From Blastocatellia bacterium (GTDB lineage Bacteria; Acidobacteriota; Blastocatellia; HR10; J050), in contig JALSQX010000005.1 of the NCBI GenBank assembly GCA_026985075.1, positions 21,417 through 85,416 of the forward strand: a DNA stretch of 64,000 nucleotides. Direction: 5' to 3'. Positions 2 to 21,553 of this stretch are shown piece after piece. Under the pieces are notes generated by a model. The model worked only from the letters and a program-made list of their open reading frames with translations, did no database searches and had not been told where the DNA came from. The translations under genes and the position numbers were made by a program. Position 1 is the first letter of the stretch. Each line of letters opens with the position of its first letter.

Positions 2-916
2 GTGGTCAATCCAGGCATGCACACGGATGACATTCTCCGCCGATTCGGCCAGGGGCGACAGATCCTGGCCAGCCTCGATCATCCAAATATCGCCCGGTTG
101 CTCGATGGAGGGGCCACCGAAGACGGACGACCTTATTTCGTCATGGAATACATCGAGGGAGAACCGATCACGCAATACTGTGACCAGCAGCGACTTTCCA
201 TCAGAGAACGATTGCGATTATTCCAGCAGGTATGCGCTGCCGTTCAGTATGCTCATCAGAATCTCATTGTGCATCGGGATTTGAAGCCCAGCAATATTCT
301 GGTCACCACTGAGGGCGCGCCCAAACTTCTGGATTTCGGCATCGCCAAGATCCTCAATCCCCAACTCACCGAATGCTCCTCGATGACCATGACGCTGGGA
401 GTACGACCGATGACGCCCGAGTATGCCAGTCCGGAGCAAGTGCGCGATGGGCCTGTCACCACGGCGAGCGATGTGTATTCGCTCGGCGTCCTCCTCTACG
501 AACTGTTGACCGGGCACCGCCCCTATCGCCTGACCAGCCATCAGCCGGAAGAGATGTGCCGCATTATCACCGAGACCGAACTGGAGAAACCGAGCACCGC
601 CATCGGCCGACGCGATGAGCAGCGCCCGGCAGACGCTCACCTCCCCTCCCAACCCACCGCAGACCAGAGGCCGCCGGCGAACGGGCCGCTCGCCATCGAG
701 GTCATCAGCCGCCAGCGCGATACCACGCCGCAGCGACTCAAGCAACAGTTGAAGGGGGATTTGGACAACATCGTGCTGATGGCGCTCAGGAAGGAGCCGA
801 CCCGGCGGTATGCCTCGGTGGAACAGTTCGCTCAGGACATCAAGCGATACCTGGATGGACGCCCCGTCTTAGCGCGCGAAGATACGCTCACCTATCGCAC
901 CGGGAAGTTCATATGA
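2..916 (+). CDS. Ser/Thr protein kinase catalytic domain. 5' end is outside the window. Ends at an in-frame TGA.
   Basis: HRDLKPSNIL, DFGIAK and SPE motifs. The TGA at 914-916 is in the same frame as the ATG at 923. Confidence 0.85.
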   Translation: MVNPGMHTDDILRRFGQGRQILASLDHPNIARLLDGGATEDGRPYFVMEYIEGEPITQYCDQQRLSIRERLRLFQQVCAAVQYAHQNLIVHRDLKPSNILVTTEGAPKLLDFGIAKILNPQLTECSSMTMTLGVRPMTPEYASPEQVRDGPVTTASDVYSLGVLLYELLTGHRPYRLTSHQPEEMCRIITETELEKPSTAIGRRDEQRPADAHLPSQPTADQRPPANGPLAIEVISRQRDTTPQRLKQQLKGDLDNIVLMALRKEPTRRYASVEQFAQDIKRYLDGRPVLAREDTLTYRTGKFI

Positions 917-5497: not shown

Positions 5498-5929
5498 TCA
5501 AATATCCAGAATCACCATGGCCCGCCACCCATCCGCGGTGCGTTCCACCTGAAAGCGATGCAGCGTGACGGCTTTCACATCGACGAGAAGCTCGTGTTTC
5601 TGAGGGTCGAGTTCTTCTCCAGAGGCTTCGGCGGCGAGCAGGGCGTGATCATCTCGTCGGTCAATGTGGACCCGGGATACGCGCAACAGGAGCCGTTCGG
5701 CATCTTTGTAGTAAATGAGCTCCTGGAGGAACTCAAACAGGAGCATATCAATGGCATCGGCTTCGGCTCGGATCGTTCGGTGCTCACGGGGGATGATGGT
5801 CGTCAGATCTTCCACCATCACGTTCATCGTCGCGTCGGCGGCGGCGATGAAGAGTTCCTCGAGCGTTTGGCCCCAGGCTTCGAAGGCGACGTCAGCAGTG
5901 GCGATGTCATCCAGGTATCGGTAGGGCAT
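5498..5929 (-). CDS. Archease (RtcB activator).
   Basis: MPYRYLDDIATADVAFEAWG N-terminus is typical of the archease family. The ORF extends to 5977, but MPYRY is the likely start. Confidence 0.8.
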   Translation of the reverse strand: MPYRYLDDIATADVAFEAWGQTLEELFIAAADATMNVMVEDLTTIIPREHRTIRAEADAIDMLLFEFLQELIYYKDAERLLLRVSRVHIDRRDDHALLAAEASGEELDPQKHELLVDVKAVTLHRFQVERTADGWRAMVILDI

Positions 5930-5993
5930 CGAGATTCTCCCTCCACATCGGGCGAACGTGATCAGCGAGATACTCATTTCGGCTATCGGCCGA

Positions 5994-6911
5994 TCACCGC
6001 TCGCACGCGCGCAGTCGATTCACAATAGTCTCTCGGTCGTCGCTCGCGCCTTGGCCGATGAAGACCAGTTCGGTCTTTTGCGCAGCGAATTCTTCCAACT
6101 CCCATCGTCCCGTCACATAGTTGAACAGATAGCTTCCTTCGGGAAATCGAACGAATCCCTTGGCTCGATAAATGGCCGTCGGGAGTTCGGCAATGGCGTC
6201 TTCGAACTTGTCCCGATCCAAGAGCTTCTCGCTGGTGAAGGTGAAAGATTGCATGTTGACAGCAGTCTGACGAGAAGAAGGCTTGGGGCGTCCGCCAATG
6301 TCCAGACCGAGGAGTACATCGACATCGACATCGCATCGCACTGTCTTGAAGATGAGAGCCCTTTCGTTGAACGCGCGGACTTGAGCTTCGACGTCTTTCA
6401 CCTGTTCCGCGGTGATGAGATCGATCTTGTTGATGAGGATGACATCGGCCGCCTCCAGTTGCGTTCGAGCGGTGTAGCCGACGGCAGGGTATTTTATACT
6501 GGCATAAGCGTCGACGATACAGATGACGCTATCGAGGCGAACCTGGGGAAGATTATCTTCGACTTCGTACACCAGAGCATCGGCCTCGGCGACGCCAGTA
6601 GCCTCAACGACGATGAACTCCGGGTGCACGGTATCAATGATCTCCGCCACCGCTGCTTCGAATTCTCCGGTGAGCGAGCAGCAGACGCAACCGCCAGCGA
6701 GTTCGACGATCTGGACATTTTCGCCCTGAATGATTTGGCTATCGATAGCGATTTCTCCAAATTCGTTCATGAGCACGGCCAATCGCCGATCGGTCGTTTC
6801 CAATATACGGCGGAGCAACGTCGTCTTACCGCTGCCCAGTGATCCGGTGATGAGAGCAATGGGTGTTTTCATCATTGATGGTCGATTATTGGTCATGGTG
6901 AGAGGAGCCAT
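5994..6911 (-). CDS. COG0523 (CobW/Zng1-like) G3E GTPase metallochaperone.
   Basis: GSGKTTLL P-loop, GCVCCS metal-binding motif and CobW-C-like tail. The true start may be the MMKTP at about 6875. Confidence 0.85.
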   Translation of the reverse strand: MAPLTMTNNRPSMMKTPIALITGSLGSGKTTLLRRILETTDRRLAVLMNEFGEIAIDSQIIQGENVQIVELAGGCVCCSLTGEFEAAVAEIIDTVHPEFIVVEATGVAEADALVYEVEDNLPQVRLDSVICIVDAYASIKYPAVGYTARTQLEAADVILINKIDLITAEQVKDVEAQVRAFNERALIFKTVRCDVDVDVLLGLDIGGRPKPSSRQTAVNMQSFTFTSEKLLDRDKFEDAIAELPTAIYRAKGFVRFPEGSYLFNYVTGRWELEEFAAQKTELVFIGQGASDDRETIVNRLRACER

Positions 6912-6943
6912 GAGTCGATGGTACAGGCTTTGATGCGCATCGG

Positions 6944-8401
6944 TTATCCTTTGATGTTCCCGATAGGGACGAAGCGAACAACCCGTTTACTGATTCCCGC
7001 CAGCTCGGTCGCTTCAATCACGTCATCGATATTCTTGTAGGCCGGACCAGCTTCTTCGGCGAGTCCGGAGTAGGAGACGCTCCGTACGTAAATGCCGCGC
7101 GCCTCCATCTCCTTCTGGAGCTTCTTGCCCTGGAATTGCTTCCGCGCCTTCCGGCGACTCATGGTCCGACCGCTCCCATGGGCCGTGGTATAGAACGTTT
7201 GATCGCCGCTGGGAATGCCAGCGAGGAGATAAGACCCCGTCTCCATACTGCCGCCAATGATGACCGGTTGGCCGGTTTCTCGATAAATGTCGGGAAGTCC
7301 TTCCATGCCCGGACCAAAGGCGCGCGTCGCTCCTTTCCGATGGACGAGGACATCGCGCACCTCGCCGTCAACGACGTGTTTCTCCAGTTTGGCCGTATTG
7401 TGGGCGACATCGTATACCTGATGTAAACCGAGATCGGCCGGATCCTTATGAAAGACGTCAGAGAACACCTCGCGGATGCGATGAAGGATGACTTGCCGGT
7501 TGGCGAACGACATATTGATGCCGCATTTCATGGCCGCAAAATAATCCTGACCCTCGGGCGAGTGGAAGGGCGCACAGGCGAGTTCTCGATCCAGAATCTT
7601 GATCCCGTATTTGGTCTCCATCACTTTGAGAAAGATCTGCAGGTAGTCGGTGGCGACCTGGTGGCCGAAACCACGGCTGCCACAGTGGAACATGATCACC
7701 ACCTGATTGGGGAGCGTGATGCCGAACGCTTCGGCCAGCCGCCGGTCGAACACGTTCTCCGGCTTGGCCACTTGAATTTCCAGGTAGTGATTTCCCGAAC
7801 CCAAGGTACCAATCTGCTTGTAACCGCGTTCCACAGCTTTTTGGCTGATCTTAGAGGCGTCAGCGCCGGCGATACAGCCTCCTTCTTCCGTACGTTCGAG
7901 ATCTTCGGGCCATCCGTACCCGTTCTTGATGCACCAGCGAGCCCCTTGCTCCACCACTTGGCGGAACTCATCGTGGGAAATTCTCACAAACCCGGTGCTT
8001 CCTACGCCGGCCGGGACGCGCTGGAAGAGTTTGTCGACCAGCTCTCGCAGATGTGGTTTCACCTCTTCATACGTCAGATTGGTGAGCACGAGCCGCATGC
8101 CGCAATTGATGTCAAAGCCGATACCGCCCGGGGAGATGACGCCCGTCCGCGCATCCATGGCCGCCACGCCGCCGATAGGGAATCCATACCCCCAGTGACC
8201 ATCAGGCATACAGTAAGCGTACTTGAGAATACCCGGCAACGTAGCGACATTGGTCACTTGGTCGAAGACGCCTTCGTCCATTTCCCGGAGGAGCTTTTCC
8301 GTGGCGTAGATGCGTGCCGGAACGCGCATCCCGGGCTTATGTGTGGGGGGGATCTCCCAAACGGTATCCGAAATCTTCCTGATATCTTCAGGTATCGCCA
8401 T
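6944..8401 (-). CDS. rtcB: RNA-splicing ligase RtcB.
   Basis: GHWGYGFPIGG, HCGSRGFGHQ and AHGSGR motifs. The start at MAIPEDIRK has a GAGGAGGTG SD. The ORF track extends to 8476. Confidence 0.9.
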   Translation of the reverse strand: MAIPEDIRKISDTVWEIPPTHKPGMRVPARIYATEKLLREMDEGVFDQVTNVATLPGILKYAYCMPDGHWGYGFPIGGVAAMDARTGVISPGGIGFDINCGMRLVLTNLTYEEVKPHLRELVDKLFQRVPAGVGSTGFVRISHDEFRQVVEQGARWCIKNGYGWPEDLERTEEGGCIAGADASKISQKAVERGYKQIGTLGSGNHYLEIQVAKPENVFDRRLAEAFGITLPNQVVIMFHCGSRGFGHQVATDYLQIFLKVMETKYGIKILDRELACAPFHSPEGQDYFAAMKCGINMSFANRQVILHRIREVFSDVFHKDPADLGLHQVYDVAHNTAKLEKHVVDGEVRDVLVHRKGATRAFGPGMEGLPDIYRETGQPVIIGGSMETGSYLLAGIPSGDQTFYTTAHGSGRTMSRRKARKQFQGKKLQKEMEARGIYVRSVSYSGLAEEAGPAYKNIDDVIEATELAGISKRVVRFVPIGNIKG

Positions 8402-8538: not shown

Positions 8539-11031
8539 TTATTTGTAGACGGCGACGTCGGCTTTTCGGAGGATCTGTTGATGGTAGAAGAACCCACGCC
8601 TGAGAACGCGGGCGATAGCTTGACTGCGGCCGCCGGCGACGAGTTCGACAATATTGTGTTCCTCTGGTTGAAAGGGCTCCATGGGAATGGGGAGAATAGA
8701 CTTCATCCCGGCCGCCTGGAAGAGGTCTTTCAGCCGCCGCTCAAGGTCGTCATCCTGGCCTGGCGGAGCCACCTGACGATCGCAATAATCGATGGCGGCG
8801 ATGAGTTCTTCGGTCACCAGGCGATCGAGTTGCTGCTGGATATAGGCTCGTGGATCGGCGAATTTATCGATGGCCTCCTTCACAACACGCCCCAACTCTT
8901 CCAGGAAGATCATCCGCCCGGTGGGGCTGGCCGAGACCTGAATATGCAACTCCAGTTCTAATTGCCGACTCTCCAGTTGACTTCGGATGTGGACGATCTC
9001 CCGATGCAATCGCCGCGCTCGCTCTATGGCCCGACGAAGCTCATCGGGTTGGGTCCCCTGCTCTAGTGACAATCCTCGGGTGAGGTTCTCCAAGGCCGAG
9101 ACGATGGCCACCGCGCGTTCGGCCACCTCATCCAGCTCACCGGGCGAAGGGAGTTCCTCTTGAAAGAAGCGGTTGAGCATCTCCCCGGCGCGCTCGATGG
9201 TCGCCTCGATGGCCTGTTTACCGGAGCTTTCCATATGACCGGCGAAGATGAGCCCCAGGAGCCGAGCATAGAGGCGATCCTCGGTCGCTGGGGAGGGGAG
9301 CTTCGGGCGTGGAGTGACAGAAGAATCTCGTTCGGGGAGCATCCACTGACGAACGTGGTCGGTGATCTCCTGAAGTCGCTGATGATCCCGCTCGGATTGC
9401 TCACGTTGCTGCTTCAGCTCGCCGACCTGTTGGGCCAGGGCGCGTTCTAATTGGTCCATGCGCGCGCGAAGGGATTGCGTCTGCTTTTCCAGTTCTGCCT
9501 GAAGATCCCGGTTCAGTCGGTCAACGGTGAGAGCGAGGTCTTCTTGTATCTCCCGAACAGAGGGAGGTTGGGGGTGACTTTGAAGTCTTTGTTCTAACTC
9601 GTCCAACCGGTCGTTAATTTTATAGATATCGAGAACGGCCTCTTCGAGGGTTCCCAACTTCTGCTCGATCGTGAGCAGCTCTTTGGTGTGGATTTGAACC
9701 GTCTGAGTGAGATCGAGACCGGTGCGCTCCGGGTCACTGGGAGCATGTTGGAGAAGGGAGAGGTTCCTTCCGGGCCTCTCGGTCAAGCCTTCCTTCTCTG
9801 TTCGGCCTGATCGGGAGATCATACCCATTCGGCGCCACCACCGCCGGCGGCGCGGCTCGAGCCGTTCCGAAGGTTGGAGCTCGTCCTCCGAAGCCTTCTG
9901 TTGAGGGCGTTCCGGTTGTCGGGACGCCTGACGCTGCCGAACATATCGTCCAGCGAATCGGGCCAGCATCACTCCCATAAGGATGGCCAGTCCAATGAGC
10001 ACGGCGCGCCAGAGGGGGGACTCCAGGGCGTCGCGGAAGAACATCCTGGCGATCGCCATCAGCGAAGATGGTTCCCACTGGATGGGCATGACCCGACGCG
10101 GCCCGTGGGGTCGGACCCGGCCGGCCGCTATCGCTGCTCGCGCCACCGAAGGGGTGTCGCCAACCAATGTCGCTTCACCACCCTCGATGATCACGTTGGC
10201 CTGGCCGGCCTTTTTTGCCGCTTCTCTGAATGCGACCTGGAGAGTCAGTATCTTCTTGAAGCCGAACCATTGTTCATTGACCACATCCTGAGTCGATTCC
10301 AGCGTCGTGATTTCAGCCGATGTCTTCGGCGCCCAGATGCGAAGTCCTTCAGGAATATTGTGGAAACGAATGAACGTCCATCCAATGGGATCGCCGCGAA
10401 TCGAGAGCTTTTGGGGCTCGGGATAAGTTCCTTCCCCGGTGAAGAAATGTAATCGGGATGGTTCAACGGCGATGAGGTGGCGATCCGTCTCCCAAAAAAA
10501 CTTCAAGTAGTGCTTTTCGCCCTGGGCGGTGACGTGTCTCTCAGCAGCCAGTTGCCTGGCCCGCTCGGGCGTGCTCGGTTGACTCCTTCCATCAGGAAGG
10601 TGACCGATGAGATACTGGACGCTCACCGGTGAGGTGGCCGTGGCCTCGATCATCAGCGTGAGGGTGAACGTTCGTCGGAAGGGGTACCACCGTCCGGGCA
10701 GAATCTCCCCTTCTTCCCGACCAGTGGGAAGATCGCCAATGAGCTCGACATCTGGCGAGGGGAAATCGAACCGGATGAAGCGCCAGCCCCCGCGACTCAT
10801 TGTGAATCGGAGTGAGACCGCAATGGGAAGTTGACCGGTGAACGAATCGCTCACATCCTGGGTCATGGAACGAGGAGCAGAGATCTCTACCGTCACGAGG
10901 GGCGAGACAGGATGGGCCATCCCACGGACGACAGATCCAACGAGGACATCGATGAAGAGGACCGCTGAGATGATCGCATAATGGCGCCTCATAGGCCTTT
11001 CTCTGGAAACGTCAACAGTCTGGCGTCCCAA
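8539..11031 (-). CDS. 830-aa membrane protein: N-terminal TM, about 330-aa extracytoplasmic domain, second TM, about 300-aa coiled coil, C-terminal GrpE-like domain.
   Basis: Hydrophobic segments YAIISAVLFIDVLVGSVV and LWRAVLIGLAILMGVMLARFAG. Heptad-rich Q/E/L/R region. C-terminus PFQPEEHNIVELV...RGFFYHQQILRKADVAVYK aligns to the GrpE C-terminal PLDPNVHQAIAMV...KGYTLNGRTIRAAMVTVAK. Confidence 0.7.
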   Translation of the reverse strand: MGRQTVDVSRERPMRRHYAIISAVLFIDVLVGSVVRGMAHPVSPLVTVEISAPRSMTQDVSDSFTGQLPIAVSLRFTMSRGGWRFIRFDFPSPDVELIGDLPTGREEGEILPGRWYPFRRTFTLTLMIEATATSPVSVQYLIGHLPDGRSQPSTPERARQLAAERHVTAQGEKHYLKFFWETDRHLIAVEPSRLHFFTGEGTYPEPQKLSIRGDPIGWTFIRFHNIPEGLRIWAPKTSAEITTLESTQDVVNEQWFGFKKILTLQVAFREAAKKAGQANVIIEGGEATLVGDTPSVARAAIAAGRVRPHGPRRVMPIQWEPSSLMAIARMFFRDALESPLWRAVLIGLAILMGVMLARFAGRYVRQRQASRQPERPQQKASEDELQPSERLEPRRRRWWRRMGMISRSGRTEKEGLTERPGRNLSLLQHAPSDPERTGLDLTQTVQIHTKELLTIEQKLGTLEEAVLDIYKINDRLDELEQRLQSHPQPPSVREIQEDLALTVDRLNRDLQAELEKQTQSLRARMDQLERALAQQVGELKQQREQSERDHQRLQEITDHVRQWMLPERDSSVTPRPKLPSPATEDRLYARLLGLIFAGHMESSGKQAIEATIERAGEMLNRFFQEELPSPGELDEVAERAVAIVSALENLTRGLSLEQGTQPDELRRAIERARRLHREIVHIRSQLESRQLELELHIQVSASPTGRMIFLEELGRVVKEAIDKFADPRAYIQQQLDRLVTEELIAAIDYCDRQVAPPGQDDDLERRLKDLFQAAGMKSILPIPMEPFQPEEHNIVELVAGGRSQAIARVLRRGFFYHQQILRKADVAVYK

Positions 11032-11165: not shown

Positions 11166-12200
11166 TCAGCCATGATCGACGCGCTGAGCGTCGATAGGAC
11201 GCTCTTCTCTCAGGGAATGAAGGGAGCGATGACGGAGCGCTGATGAGGATCTCAACGCCTCCTGGAGTTTCTCGACCATGCGCCGTTGGATCTCCTCTAG
11301 CCGCCCTTCTACGGTGCAGCCGGCGGCATTGCGATGACCCCCGCCACCGAAATACTCGGCGATCTTGGCGACGTTAATGGCGTCCTTGGAGCGCAGCGAG
11401 GCACGATAGACGTTGGGTCTGACTTCCTTTAAAAAAAGAACGACATCGATATCGGCTACGGCGAGGGGATAGTTGGCCAGTCCATCAGCATCCTCTTCGG
11501 TGGCCTGCGCCGCGGCCAACATCTGTTGGGTCACGGCCAGATAGGCGATGCGGCCCGTCTGGTCGCGCTGCAGGGAACTGAGGGCCAGTCCCATGAGCTT
11601 CAGTTTGCTGAACGGTTGCGAGTAATAAATGGCGCGGGAGATGCGCGCCGGATTGGCTCCGAGCCGGATGAGCTCGCTAGCCACCTTGAGCGTGCGGGCG
11701 GTCGTATTGGGGAAATGGAACGAGCCGGTGTCCGTCAGCAGGGCGGCATAAATGCACTCGGCAATCTCAGCAGTCACGCGCGCTCCCGTCGCTTTGCACA
11801 GGTTGTAAATCATTTCACCTACTGCCGACGCCGTCGAGTCGATCCAATTGATATCGCCGAAGCGAACCGTGGTGGTGTGGTGATCGATGTTGACCACGAA
11901 CTGTTCGGAGAGCCCGGGAAGGCCCGGCCGATCGATGTCACTGCATTCGATGACGAAAACGGCGTCGTATTGGTGGGGGTGATCAAATTGGTTGATTCTC
12001 TGCACGCGACGGGCGCCCGGCAGCGTCTGGTATGCTCTGGGAATGTGATCGCGCATCACGACGACGGCGTCTTTGTTCAACTCTTGGAGCATGAGCATCA
12101 GAGCCAGCGAAGACCCCACACTGTCTCCATCCGGTCGAACGTGGGAGGTAATAGCAAATCGGTGTTTGCTGTCGATCAACTCAACGACTTCACTCAGCAT
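11166..12200 (-). CDS. nrnA: DHH/DHHA1 phosphoesterase (NrnA-like oligoribonuclease / pAp phosphatase).
   Basis: ITSHVRPDGDSVGSSLAL, DHH and GGGH motifs. Confidence 0.8.
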   Translation of the reverse strand: MLSEVVELIDSKHRFAITSHVRPDGDSVGSSLALMLMLQELNKDAVVVMRDHIPRAYQTLPGARRVQRINQFDHPHQYDAVFVIECSDIDRPGLPGLSEQFVVNIDHHTTTVRFGDINWIDSTASAVGEMIYNLCKATGARVTAEIAECIYAALLTDTGSFHFPNTTARTLKVASELIRLGANPARISRAIYYSQPFSKLKLMGLALSSLQRDQTGRIAYLAVTQQMLAAAQATEEDADGLANYPLAVADIDVVLFLKEVRPNVYRASLRSKDAINVAKIAEYFGGGGHRNAAGCTVEGRLEEIQRRMVEKLQEALRSSSALRHRSLHSLREERPIDAQRVDHG

Positions 12201-12209
12201 GACTCTCTC

Positions 12210-12563
12210 TCAATCTTCGGGATCTTTCGCCGTCTCTGCCAGAAGTTCGTCAATTCGCGCCGCCACTTCCAGCGTATCATCATAATAGAATTTGAGTTCG
12301 GGAATGAAGCGAAGGCGAAGCCGAGGGTAAAGCTGGTGGCGGATGAAGCCAGCCGCTCGATTGAGTCCGTGCACGGTCTGGTCGATTTCCTCGCGCGATC
12401 CCGTGATGGTCACGTACACCCGGGCGTGGCGCAAATCCGGACTCACTTTGACGTGGGTCACGGTCGCCGGTTTGATCCGGCGATCCTCCAATTCATAGTG
12501 AATGATTTGACTGATCTCTTGTTTGAGCAATTCGGCCACACGAGCTGGTCGATAAGGTTTCAT
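12210..12563 (-). CDS. rbfA: Ribosome-binding factor A.
   Basis: MKPYRPARVAELLKQEISQII and VTHVKVSPDLRHARVYV. Confidence 0.9.
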   Translation of the reverse strand: MKPYRPARVAELLKQEISQIIHYELEDRRIKPATVTHVKVSPDLRHARVYVTITGSREEIDQTVHGLNRAAGFIRHQLYPRLRLRFIPELKFYYDDTLEVAARIDELLAETAKDPED

Positions 12564-12586
12564 CGTGACGCTCCTCGCTTCACTCC

Positions 12587-15163
12587 TCACAGCGCTTGAG
12601 CGACTCGTTCCACCGTGAAGACCTCGATGATGTCGCCCGGCTTAATGTCGTTATAATCCTCCAATCGAATACCACACTCGAATCCTTGTTTCACTTCCGT
12701 AGCATCCTCCTTGAATCGCTTGAGCGATTGAATGGTGCCCTCGTAAATGACGACGTTGTCCCGCAGCAGGCGCGCCCGGGCATTTCGTCGCACTACTCCC
12801 TCGGTGACCATGCAGCCAGCGACGTTGCCCACCTTGGGGATATGGAAGATTTGCCGGATCTCCGCCTGTCCAAGACGGACTTCTCGCTCTGTCGGTTCGA
12901 GCAAACCTTCCATGGCTTTTCGAATTTCTTCCTCCACTTTATAGATCACCGAATGGAAGCGAATGTCCACGTGTTCTTGACGGGCCAACTCCGCCGCTCG
13001 AGGTTCAGGACGAACGTTGAAACCGATAACGATGGCCGTGCGATCCATTTGATTGGCGGCGCTGGCCAGGAGGACGTCTGACTCGGTGATAGCACCTACA
13101 CCACTGCGGATGATCGTCACTTTCACTTTTGGACTGGAGAGCTTCTCCAGCGTTTGTCGAAGCGCCTCCAGGGACCCTTGGACATCGGCCTTGAGGATCA
13201 GTTGGAGTTCTTTCAGTTGTCCCGCTTGCAGGCGCTCGTAGAGTTGCTCAAGCGACGTGGCCGCGGTGACTCGGGCTCGCGCCTGGCGCTCGGCCGTCTG
13301 GCGGAGCGAGCTGATGCGCTGAGCCGTGGTCAGGTCGTCGACGACGATGAGCCGATCTCCGGCTTCGGGCACGGCTTCCAGTCCCGTCACTTCAACGGGC
13401 GTCGCGGGTGGAGCTTCAGCGAGTCGCCTCCCTCGGTGATCGAACATGGCCCGCACGCGACCAAACGTCGTGCCCACCAGAAACGCGTCGCCCACACGAA
13501 GGGTGCCCTGTCCGACGAGAATGGTGGCCACCGGACCACGCCCTCGGTCGAGCTTGCTCTCCAGGACCACGCCCGCCGCTTTTCGGTTGGGATTGGCTTT
13601 GAGGTCCAGCAAATCGGCAGTGAGCAGGATCATCTCCAGGAGCTCATCGAGATTGATGCGCTGCTTGGCCGAAACTTCCACCATGACCGTATCGCCTCCC
13701 CAGCCGTCCCACACGAGGCCGTGATCGGCCAGCTCTTTCTTGACGCGCTCGGGATTGGCTTCCGGTTTGTCGATCTTATTGATGGCGACGATGATGGGCA
13801 CGTTCGCCGCTCGCGCGTGCTCGATAGCCTCGATCGTCTGTGGCATGACGCCGTCGTCGGCGGCCACCACGAGCACGACGATGTCGGTCACTTGAGCGCC
13901 GCGAGCGCGCATCATCGTGAAAGCCTCATGGCCGGGGGTATCCAGAAACACGATCTGGCGCTTCTGTCCCGGAGCATCGGGATCATCGACCTCCACGGTG
14001 TAGGCGCCGATGTGCTGGGTGATGCCTCCCACCTCCGATTCGGCCACATGGGTTTCCCGAATGGCATCCAGGAGGCTCGTCTTCCCATGATCCACGTGCC
14101 CCATGACCGTGACCACCGGCGCGCGCGGCACGAGGACCTCTTCTTCTCCCGCGGCGAGCAGCTGCTCGATGACCGCCTCTTCGGCCAACTCTTCGAAGGA
14201 GGCGAAGTGAATATCATAGCCCAGTTCGCGGCCAATCTCTTTAGCGATGTCAGGTTCCAAGGGCTGATTAATGGTGGCCATAATTCCTCGTTTGAGGAGT
14301 CGCTGCATCACGTCGCGGGGGCGGACGTCTAACTTCTCGGAGAATTCCTTCACCGTGATGCCCTCCATGAGCTTGACCGTTCGGAGTTCAGCGGTGGTTG
14401 GCTTGGCGACGGCCGCCGCGGCCGGGCGCTCTTTGACGGGTACGCGTTTTTTCACTGGTGGGCGCGGTGGGCGACGACGACGGCGACGGTCATCGCGTGG
14501 GGGCACGTACACGCGATCTGAGATATCCATGGGCTTGGGGGGCGTCTGGGGCCGCGCGGGGGCTGAGGGGCGCAGAACGGTGACTTTCATCCCCGGCGGA
14601 GATGGGGGCGTTTGGCGGGCCGGCTGTGGGGGGGACGGTTCCGTCACTTCTGCTTTCGCCGCCGCCGTGGCCGGAGGCGCAGGGGACGGCTTGGTGGCTG
14701 GAGGGGCCGCTGGAGGCCGAACTAATTTCAGCGGTGTGACTTTCACCGCAGGCTGCGGTTCGGTCGACGGCTCTTCACCCTTTGGCGGCTTTTTCTTCAA
14801 TCGAACCGCTTTCATCTTCGGTGCCGGAGGCTCGGGGGGCGTCTTCTTCTTTTCGGCGCGAACGGGGGCCTCCATGGCCGCCGGCGCGGCGGGCTTTTCG
14901 ACAACCGTCGGCTCAGGGGATGTTGGCTCGGTGGAAACGGTCTCCGCCGGTTTCTCCTTGACTTTCTTCACCAGACGGACTTTCGGTTTCTTGGGTTCGA
15001 CTTTCTTAACGTAGTATTTGGACCGAATTTTCTCGGCCTCTTCTTCCGTGATCGAGTTAGAGGCCACGCGCACATCGAGGCCGAGACGGCGGGCGTCTTC
15101 AATCACCCGCTTGGGCTCGAGTTTGAGCTGTTTGGCGAGTTCGTAAATTCGTATTTTCCCCAT
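12587..15163 (-). CDS. infB: Translation initiation factor IF-2.
   Basis: [20 protein letters not shown] and NKIDK G-domain motifs. Pro/Ala/Lys-rich N-terminus. Confidence 0.95.
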
Positions 15164-20335: not shown

Positions 20336-21553
20336 TCAGGGCCCGGGGCGACGCACTCTCTCCGTTTCCATGATGGGATTGAAGATGATGAAATCTTGAT
20401 CACCTGCATCGGCGATGAGTCGCCCATCGTTCAAACGCGCGACCACCAGAATACGCGCCGAGTCGGTCCGCAGAGTGGTGGGAACGACCCATTCGAACTG
20501 CCGAGCGCGGGCAGGCAGCGAAGGGGCCAGCACGGAGGGAAAGGTGACTCCTCCATCGAAGGAGAGGCGAATTTGTTGTTGACGAACATCGACGCGGTCA
20601 TCCACTCGCCACGTGATGGTCAACTGCGCGCCTCCCTTGACGACATACCGATCATTGGGGTTGATGACGTCGATGAGCGATGAGGCTTTGTCCACGATCA
20701 TGAAGCTCTTTTCGTCGAGACCAAATCCCACATCATTGAAGGCCAATACGCCGATGCTCGCCGAGTCCGTCAACGCGTCGGGTACCGTCCACTCGTAGCT
20801 CCGACGATCGCTGGGGAGACCAGAGACGATGGACTGCGGCAGGGCGCCTGAGCGCGGGAAGAAGAGGATGTCAAAGCTCGTGGCGTTCACCGCCTCCCAC
20901 TGGATGATCAGTGATTCGCCAGGACTCACGACCTCACCTCCTTGGGGTGACACGAGCGTCACCGCCGGGAACGAGGGCGGCGAGACGCTCACCGTCGTCG
21001 TGTAGATCCAATCGCCCAGTCGGGTACCATCATTATTCGAGGCATTCCCCGCCGCATAAAAGGCCACCGGCCCTCTATCCGTCTCTGGCGCGATCCAATC
21101 GAACGTCCAACGAGCGCCGCTCGGTCGACCGGCGAACGTCCCGGCTTCAGTATGCTCAACATAAAGCCGACCGTCGGCTCCTTCGATCAGTTGCGTATGG
21201 AGAGGATCGGTGATGACGAACTGTCCGGCTGGCTGATCGGTATCGGCCGTCAGGGCAGTCACTTCAAATCCCCATCGTCGCTGCCCGGGATGAGTCACTT
21301 GGATAGTGATCGGGTATCGCTGTCCCGGTTCATAGCGCGATGGTGCCTGAATAGTCATGAAGCCGATTCCCTGATTGGGCGTTTCTCCAAACGAGTCGTG
21401 GCATTCAGTACAGTTGCTCTCTCCCGGCGCATTGGTGAATCCGGGGAGCGGTCCGGTCGAGAACGCCACAGCGAGGCTGGCCGCCGAGAGCGCGATGAAG
21501 ATGGTGATCAGTTTGGTGAGCCGTTGTCTCTTCTCATGCCGTGACATGTGCAT
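20336..21553 (-). CDS. Secreted protein with an N-terminal CxxCH motif and beta-sandwich-like repeats.
   Basis: Signal peptide. PGFTNAPGESNCTECHDS contains C-T-E-C-H. Confidence 0.6.
   Translation of the reverse strand: MHMSRHEKRQRLTKLITIFIALSAASLAVAFSTGPLPGFTNAPGESNCTECHDSFGETPNQGIGFMTIQAPSRYEPGQRYPITIQVTHPGQRRWGFEVTALTADTDQPAGQFVITDPLHTQLIEGADGRLYVEHTEAGTFAGRPSGARWTFDWIAPETDRGPVAFYAAGNASNNDGTRLGDWIYTTTVSVSPPSFPAVTLVSPQGGEVVSPGESLIIQWEAVNATSFDILFFPRSGALPQSIVSGLPSDRRSYEWTVPDALTDSASIGVLAFNDVGFGLDEKSFMIVDKASSLIDVINPNDRYVVKGGAQLTITWRVDDRVDVRQQQIRLSFDGGVTFPSVLAPSLPARARQFEWVVPTTLRTDSARILVVARLNDGRLIADAGDQDFIIFNPIMETERVRRPGP

Follow-up and report, generated by a model that had tools for sequence, protein, structure and literature searches.

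A diverged GrpE-like domain at the C-terminus of a predicted membrane-anchored protein from a Blastocatellia bacterium, with relatives encoded in Tubulin_2/Hsp70-like gene clusters

GrpE is a small soluble cochaperone of bacteria and mitochondria, which acts as the nucleotide exchange factor resetting DnaK/Hsp70. Here we describe a minus-strand gene from a Blastocatellia bacterium (Acidobacteriota; J050 in the GTDB lineage), located in a 64,000-nucleotide stretch (positions 21,417 to 85,416 of contig JALSQX010000005.1, assembly GCA_026985075.1; hereinafter the window), whose product ends in a diverged version of this cochaperone. On balance, and with modest confidence, we favor the interpretation that it is a bitopic inner-membrane protein functioning as a GrpE-type, membrane-tethered partner for an ATPase of the Hsp70 family. 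The first-pass annotation of the window had recognized a GrpE-like domain at its C-terminus, and sequence profiles together with a predicted structure confirm that this is a true, albeit diverged, GrpE-fold domain. The domain itself is no discovery, because several relatives already carry the automated label "nucleotide exchange factor GrpE"; however, as housekeeping calls on Acidobacteriota proteins of 600–900 residues such labels are misleading. A GrpE domain stationed at the inner membrane behind a pair of periplasmic immunoglobulin (Ig)-like domains would place Hsp70-type ATPase cycling at the envelope in a new way.

The GrpE-like domain comprises a VSxHxxAR loop, a short remnant of the GrpE long helix, a helix hairpin and a C-terminal β-domain with the motifs P-F-Q-P-E-E-H, RGF and LRKAxVxV (Table 1; residue numbers follow the 817-residue product unless stated otherwise). 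The Pfam GrpE model (PF01025) matches residues 751–817 (window 8542–8742) with E = 1.6e-8, its 34.8 bits exceeding the gathering cutoff of 25.8, the alignment being confined to profile positions 98–165 of 165, i.e., about 67 residues. The same model is matched individually by 36 of 45 C-terminal modules drawn from the family. When turned into a profile and compared with PDB sequences, these 45 modules recover five solved GrpE proteins, namely those of Thermus (3a6m, the best match at 3.5e-7), human mitochondria, Geobacillus, Mycobacterium and E. coli; GrpE surfaces with this family profile only, as phmmer with the single protein finds no GrpE among PDB sequences. The motifs shared with GrpE proteins of known structure (1DKG, 3A6M, 4ANI, 8GB3 and the GrpEL1 structures 9BLS/9BLT) are G-x-P-F-x-P-x-x-H, [KR]-G-[YF] and L-R-x-A-x-V-x-V, along with a D-x-x-D-R motif in the helix hairpin that reads IDYCDR in the window protein and IDSLDR in E. 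coli. An hhalign comparison with E. coli GrpE aligns residues 121–193 of the E. coli protein (E 8.7e-4). Of five DnaK-contact positions of E. coli GrpE, P151 is paired with Pro, M174 with Leu and V192 with Val, but Arg183 with Gln and Gly122 with Asp.

Structure prediction extends the likeness beyond the residues aligned by Pfam. The AlphaFold2 model of the C-terminal module, built on the family alignment, has a mean predicted local distance difference test score (pLDDT) of 88.3, rising to 95–98 over the last 110 residues, and a predicted template modeling score (pTM) of 0.81. It displays a four-helix bundle (module residues 8–115) followed by the conserved loop, a 21-residue helix, a hairpin of 28 + 14 residues and a six-stranded β-domain. 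In a Foldseek search of the PDB with this model the top 11 matches are all GrpE (121–184 aligned columns, probability 1.00; 1dkg_A at E 1.8e-4), while the twelfth match overall drops to E 0.39. The likeness covers the hairpin, the β-domain and part of the long helix, with a high root-mean-square deviation to the GrpE structures because the orientations of the helices differ. Given the many weak coiled-coil matches in this protein, the GrpE resemblance might be imagined to be a chance or compositional match in a helical low-complexity sequence, but we consider this extremely improbable and have rejected it: the match sits in the β-rich C-terminus rather than in the coiled coil, scores above the curated Pfam cutoff, recurs across relatives and in the PDB profile matches, and is independently confirmed by the structure search. 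Thus, neither a missing GrpE fold nor a similarity restricted to low-complexity coiled coil, the outcomes that the first-pass annotation had named as fatal to the assignment, was observed.

N-terminal to this domain, the hydropathy scan and AlphaFold modeling agree on a membrane-anchored protein with a folded extracytoplasmic domain, upholding the original proposal in outline while altering its details. Two hydrophobic segments are indeed present (residues 4–26 and 325–349), and both had been counted as transmembrane (TM) helices. The first segment closes with GMA↓HP, and its counterparts in aligned homologues end at sites of the AxA↓Q type (AVA↓Q, ALA↓Q, VMA↓Q and similar); hence, residues 1–26 are probably a cleavable Sec signal peptide, with a cleavage site judged by eye, rather than a TM helix, which leaves a single membrane crossing. 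Residues 1–27 are modeled with pLDDT below 50. The second segment recurs as a TM helix at the equivalent place in nearly all long members of the family and gives way to a strongly basic run (RYVRQRQ...RRRRWWRR), which by the positive-inside rule should place the C-terminus in the cytoplasm. The intervening ectodomain, put at about 330 residues in the first-pass annotation, measures about 300 in the AlphaFold2 model (m3cb5991f75fc; residues 1–354, 16 homologues, pLDDT 82.7), which resolves it into two β-sandwich domains, each bearing a W-x-F-[IV]-R ... W-[YF]-x-F-[KR] signature in the homologue alignment. Its Foldseek matches in the PDB are just generic tandem Ig-like folds (Calx-beta, PAD N-terminal domains and ASH/MSP-like domains), and therefore no ligand can be named. 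Likewise, in place of the coiled coil of about 300 residues suggested earlier, the protein has a coiled-coil-like stretch of about 130 residues and then a helical bundle of about 120, the latter seen in the AlphaFold model. The stalk is labeled coiled-coil-like from weak matches to coiled-coil families (apolipoprotein, SMC, Rad50 and ZorA). Together with the helix hairpin, it is compatible with dimerization.

The gene is a single uninterrupted open reading frame (ORF; 8539..11031), the 830 codons of which, as given in the first-pass annotation, are counted from a TTG. The frame is real; however, its product is likelier to be shorter. The database copy of the identical protein (P0001) begins at M14 of that frame, the ATG at window position 10992, and a protein with 77% identity from an Acidobacteria metagenome-assembled genome (P0002) starts at the same place, 13 codons inside the TTG-initiated frame. 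A Shine–Dalgarno-like stretch, GAGAAAGG (11003–10996), lies 3 nt upstream of this ATG. Because both database copies begin there and the ATG has this stretch in front of it, the true start is most likely ATG 10992, giving a product of 817 residues.

Table 1. Segments of the gene and its predicted product, with the ratio of nonsynonymous to synonymous substitution rates (dN/dS) computed per segment against the J050 orthologue, the closest relative
Feature	Residues	Window position	Strand	Basis or remark	dN/dS
Coding sequence, membrane GrpE-like protein (most likely 817 aa)	1–817	8539..10992	-	stop codon 8539–8541	
N-terminal hydrophobic segment (probable signal peptide)	1–26	10915..10992	-	hydropathy scan; MRRH, hydrophobic core, GMA↓HP	
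Extracytoplasmic domain, two tandem Ig-like β-sandwiches	27–324	10021..10914	-	AlphaFold model	0.19
Transmembrane helix	325–349	9946..10020	-	hydropathy 2.14; helix 326–353 in model	
Juxtamembrane linker, basic, poorly conserved	350–427	9712..9945	-	sequence; dN/dS	0.60 (least constrained segment)
Coiled-coil-like helical stalk, about 130 aa	428–560	9313..9711	-	weak library matches	0.22
Family-specific four-helix bundle	561–680	8953..9312	-	model m0e34ce0ce0a5, helices 8–24, 32–52, 57–80, 90–115	0.14
GrpE-like domain	681–817	8542..8952	-	Pfam, PDB profile matches, Foldseek	0.047 (most constrained part)

The four-helix bundle forms the first part of a module of about 250 residues that is conserved in about 90 sequence-cluster representatives and is always found at the very C-terminus. 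The family was exposed by an exhaustive search of 1.84 billion such representatives, which yielded 130 relatives (58 at values below 1e-30). A word-indexed search for homologues recovered almost nothing (2 matches each time), its candidates probably having been swamped by coiled-coil words. The relatives share a common architecture, with an N-terminal hydrophobic segment, a variable ectodomain, a strong TM helix and the conserved C-terminal module, and four of them (P0007, P0015, P0017 and P0031) align to the window protein in a single stretch over residues 40–830 in the 830-residue numbering. Among more distant orthologues the protein is 38–42% identical overall, with flanking genes at 65–88%; the C-terminal module retains 56–58% identity as against 33–41% for the ectodomain, which is the fastest-diverging folded part. 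All taxon-named relatives and all loci from the genome collection belong to Acidobacteriota (Blastocatellia, Pyrinomonadaceae). The related loci (hereinafter with L numbers) were gathered with a 15-sequence alignment biased to Acidobacteriota, and the distant loci L012, L013 and L016 carry no assigned taxon. A scan of viral contigs found no family member. One relative bears the JGI label "ElaB/YqjD/DUF883"; no such Pfam match occurs in the 45 C-terminal modules, and we take the label to be a coiled-coil artefact.

Outside the window clade, 12 sampled loci have upstream sequence or recognizable cluster genes, and in every one of them the GrpE-like gene is part of a gene cluster; P0007 and P0015 are cluster-encoded. 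In the 10 loci that extend upstream (L003–L006, L011–L014, L016 and L018), it lies 0–1 genes downstream of a gene for an Hsp70-like protein, the intervening ORF, where present, coding for about 420 residues, and in 9 of these 10 a gene for a tubulin-like protein of the Tubulin_2/FtsZl1 family (858–1120 aa) lies upstream of the Hsp70-like gene. The remaining two (L017 and L019) begin inside or just upstream of the GrpE-like gene and have the same cluster genes downstream. The Hsp70-like protein (920–950 aa) matches the first half of the PF00012 model, reaches DnaK models at 1e-25, and also matches SrfB and MreB weakly. In the Acidobacteriota-type loci, L017 and L019 included, the GrpE-like gene is followed by genes for a protein of about 515 residues and a multi-TM protein of about 620 residues and, where the contig continues, for a MotB/ZorB-like OmpA protein (PADLOC ZorB, 1e-19), often then an Ion_trans_2 channel. 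The MotB-like gene of L013 comes after a gene for a MotA/ExbB-family protein that has a long helical tail. Across the loci the Tubulin_2, Hsp70-like and GrpE-like genes diverge in step. The full order in L003:324–14924 is Tubulin_2/FtsZl1 (about 1100 aa), Hsp70-like (about 950 aa), the ~420-aa ORF, 1–2 GrpE-like genes, the ~515-aa protein, the ~620-aa multi-TM protein and the MotB/ZorB-like OmpA protein, and L004–L006, L011, L014, L017 and L018 have the same order. In the small ORFs that precede Tubulin_2 in L011 and L013, a Pfam scan, not aimed at DO-GTPase or GAP1 specifically, detected no domain except for a weak vWA match in L013. To our searches, the joining in one cluster of tubulin-like, Hsp70-like and MotB/ZorB-type OmpA proteins (with a MotA-like partner in one locus) is a combination for which the literature returned no description.

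Many clusters (L004, L005, L006 and L011) code for two tandem GrpE-like paralogues with ectodomains of unequal length, e.g., L004:8075–10429 and L004:10499–12844, an arrangement that would fit a heterodimer, unlike the homodimeric GrpE. At two of the distant loci (L012:8107–10641 and L013:9974–12130) the GrpE-like gene is followed by genes for a protein with TPR and DZR zinc-ribbon regions and an amidohydrolase; in L012 the TPR/DZR protein also has a Ser/Thr kinase domain and gives a weak tblastn match to the first ORF of the window (266–556), with 34% identity over 98 residues.

For the wider family, the partner would most simply be the 920–950-aa Hsp70-like protein encoded just upstream, and the recurrent linkage points to a dedicated Hsp70-like ATPase of this kind, rather than the housekeeping DnaK, as the usual partner family-wide. 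The window clade lies outside such a cluster, and therefore its partner would be either DnaK or an Hsp70-like ATPase whose gene lies at another site in the genome. In a crude midpoint-rooted neighbor-joining tree of the C-terminal modules, this clade is nested inside the cluster-associated Acidobacteriota group; hence, the gene probably resided ancestrally in the Tubulin_2/Hsp70-like cluster and was relocated in the window clade.

We posit the following mechanism for the window protein. Upon removal of the signal peptide, the two Ig-like domains would face the periplasm, with one helix crossing the membrane and the basic linker, the stalk, the four-helix bundle and the terminal GrpE-like domain arrayed on the cytoplasmic side. 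The stalk and the GrpE helix hairpins would mediate dimerization, as in GrpE, and the β-wing is predicted to grip the nucleotide-binding domain of the Hsp70-family ATPase, thereby holding it at the membrane and probably speeding the release of ADP. More speculatively, the periplasmic Ig-like pair may recognize a component of the envelope and in this way bias the cytoplasmic end. The coupling of an envelope signal to Hsp70, which the first-pass annotation had suggested, is plausible in that it fits this architecture.

Several observations weigh against casting the window protein as such an exchange factor. It fails the NCBIfam full-length GrpE equivalog models (the best, NF010737, reaches 25.4 bits where the cutoff is 164), on which grounds we reject it as the housekeeping GrpE; by sequence it is GrpE-like at the C-terminus yet falls outside full-length GrpE membership. 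The similarity in sequence ends at the last helix of the bundle, there being no match before profile position 98, and the long-helix motif of the AEFENYRKR type, noted as missing in the first-pass annotation, is likewise unrecognizable here. In the hhalign comparison, E. coli Arg183 pairs with Gln and Gly122 with Asp. The structure model is of a monomer, so that dimerization is assumed. The linkage to Hsp70-like genes comes from paralogues and orthologues at 22–40% identity rather than from the window clade, and tblastn with the cluster proteins finds no Hsp70-family, Tubulin_2 or MotB-like gene in the 64-kb window.

Some of these differences could be taken to mean that the domain has no exchange activity at all and is instead a dimeric docking or anchoring module, a structural membrane tether for the Hsp70/actin-fold ATPase or for another protein. 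The long helix is truncated to 21 residues in the model and preceded by a family-specific bundle unlike that of GrpE, several DnaK-contact positions are missing along with the canonical motif, and the cluster Hsp70-like proteins, with their half-length match to the Hsp70 model and resemblance to SrfB/MreB, may not cycle like chaperones. Nevertheless, a purely structural role seems quite unlikely to us: very strong purifying selection falls exactly on the β-wing and hairpin, the GrpE-core residues RG... and R-K-A-x-V are invariant across the family, and the β-domain positions aligned with E. coli P151, I157, M159, M174 and V192 keep their hydrophobic character.

The identity of the ATPase is a separate matter. 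If it were the housekeeping DnaK, the window protein would be an exchange factor localized to the membrane that couples a signal from the envelope to the general network of chaperones. The reality of the GrpE fold and the unlinking of the window clade from a dedicated Hsp70-like gene are consistent with this, as is the retention of the canonical-looking F-x-P-x-x-H (module P216 and H219), where most cluster-type relatives have PFxTAEQ. However, the clade is nested in a family encoded alongside its own Hsp70-like ATPase, the residue paired with Arg183 of E. coli differs, and the signal coupling is conjectural. The first-pass annotation had also proposed locating the canonical grpE elsewhere in the genome; the search covered the 64-kb window, where E. 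coli queries detect no dnaK, dnaJ or canonical grpE. Linkage of grpE with Hsp70 genes is common, though not universal. Taken together, we judge this DnaK-based reading to be unlikely, and retain the view of the protein as a membrane-tethered partner of an Hsp70-family ATPase.

Compared with GrpE itself, the window protein differs in its size (817 residues as opposed to about 200), in its additional signal peptide, Ig-like pair, TM helix and long stalk, in having a short helix plus a four-helix bundle specific to the family where GrpE has its long N-terminal helix, and in that its gene is not beside dnaK or dnaJ. An analogy, with no homology, is offered by DjlA of E. coli, in which a cochaperone domain of Hsp70 is likewise tethered to the inner membrane by an N-terminal anchor; however, the domain in question is a J domain rather than GrpE, and DjlA has no large periplasmic domain.

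The clusters of the relatives recall two groups of previously described systems. FtsZl1 (Tubulin_2, PF13809) was reported in operons with vWA, OmpA and GTPase genes, for which a role in membrane remodeling was proposed, with Hsp70 and GrpE nowhere mentioned (Makarova and Koonin 2010, PMC2875224). The clusters resemble these operons in beginning with Tubulin_2 and including an OmpA-family protein, with the weak vWA match in L013 as a further point of likeness, although the window gene itself is outside such a cluster. The conflict systems centered on DO-GTPase and GAP1-N2 have tubulin and Hsp70+GrpE as separate, non-overlapping themes; these systems were reported chiefly from Actinobacteria and Firmicutes, and the account of them contains no membrane-anchored GrpE (Kaur, Burroughs, Iyer, Aravind 2020, PMC7159879). 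They set a precedent for specialized Hsp70+GrpE pairs and for tubulin homologues in non-housekeeping multi-gene systems, but are built around DO-GTPase and GAP1. Our literature searches found no description of a membrane-anchored GrpE or of a cluster uniting Tubulin_2 with Hsp70 and GrpE, and no characterization of the FtsZl1 operons since the 2010 prediction; the family context thus offers these operons a biochemical handle in the form of a testable pair of ATPase and exchange factor.

A further likeness is to the ion-driven stators ZorA/ZorB of Zorya and MotA/MotB, in that the clusters end with a MotB/ZorB-like OmpA protein after a multi-TM protein, the latter being MotA/ExbB-like in L013; the window differs in having no stator genes. 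PADLOC makes no defence-system assignment for the window protein, and we rejected its identity as ZorA itself, as NF033914 matches at E = 0.22 on the coiled coil only, PADLOC gives no ZorA match, and the protein has one TM helix plus a signal peptide. Bringing these strands together, we tentatively raise the possibility that the family is the anchoring, nucleotide-exchange subunit of a hitherto undescribed envelope-associated machine of Acidobacteriota, combining an FtsZl1 tubulin-like GTPase with a giant ATPase of the Hsp70/actin fold and an ion-driven stator like MotAB/ZorAB, and acting in envelope remodeling or phage defence. The window copy, relocated, stand-alone and under strong purifying selection, might then still work for the machine in trans, or might have found a new use in recruiting Hsp70 activity to the membrane.

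The immediate neighborhood of the window gene tells a different story from that of the cluster-type relatives. As noted in the first-pass annotation, the gene directly upstream of rtcB (6944..8401) is the one described here, and this position is kept in five independent orthologous loci (the window, L001/L002, L007, L008 and L009/L010), which share the order rimP-nusA-infB-rbfA-DHH-[gene]-rtcB, followed by cobW and archease where the contig continues. Such retention of the DHH-[gene]-rtcB order, down to 38% protein identity, could hint at a functional tie to the RNA-repair genes rtcB, cobW and archease, with the protein serving, e.g., as the operon's membrane stress sensor. However, the tie is weakly supported because the whole neighborhood is a conserved housekeeping block: the genes from rimP to rtcB are 65–98% identical, and the synteny may reflect lineage gene order. 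Moreover, the gene is set off by gaps of 173 nt from the upstream DHH/DHHA1 phosphoesterase gene (11166..12200) and about 137 nt from rtcB, the latter gap containing a sigma-70-like, promoter-like site, while no terminator-like site was seen on the coding strand. Domain-library scans of the protein detect no nucleic-acid or regulatory output domain, and at the other sampled loci rtcB does not neighbor the family gene. We therefore regard a role in the RNA-repair operon as highly unlikely, and continue to favor partnership with an Hsp70-family ATPase.

Elsewhere in the window, the tRNA scan was empty and no Rfam family reached its gathering threshold. On the plus strand, a 357-aa ORF (11526–12599) runs antisense to DHH/DHHA1 and rbfA; homologous loci lend it no support, and we take it as most likely a shadow ORF in this GC-rich sequence. 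On the minus strand (5498–8401), rtcB is followed by a gene for a CobW/CobW_C GTPase and then by archease, a trio also present in L001 and L009. A GTPase of the metallochaperone type is an unusual operon companion for RtcB and its activator archease, between which it is encoded. The rtcB of the window codes for 485 residues and is free of inteins, while that of the orthologous locus L007 (L007:12422–16789) encodes 1455 residues with two intein-splicing regions and a faint LAGLIDADG match.

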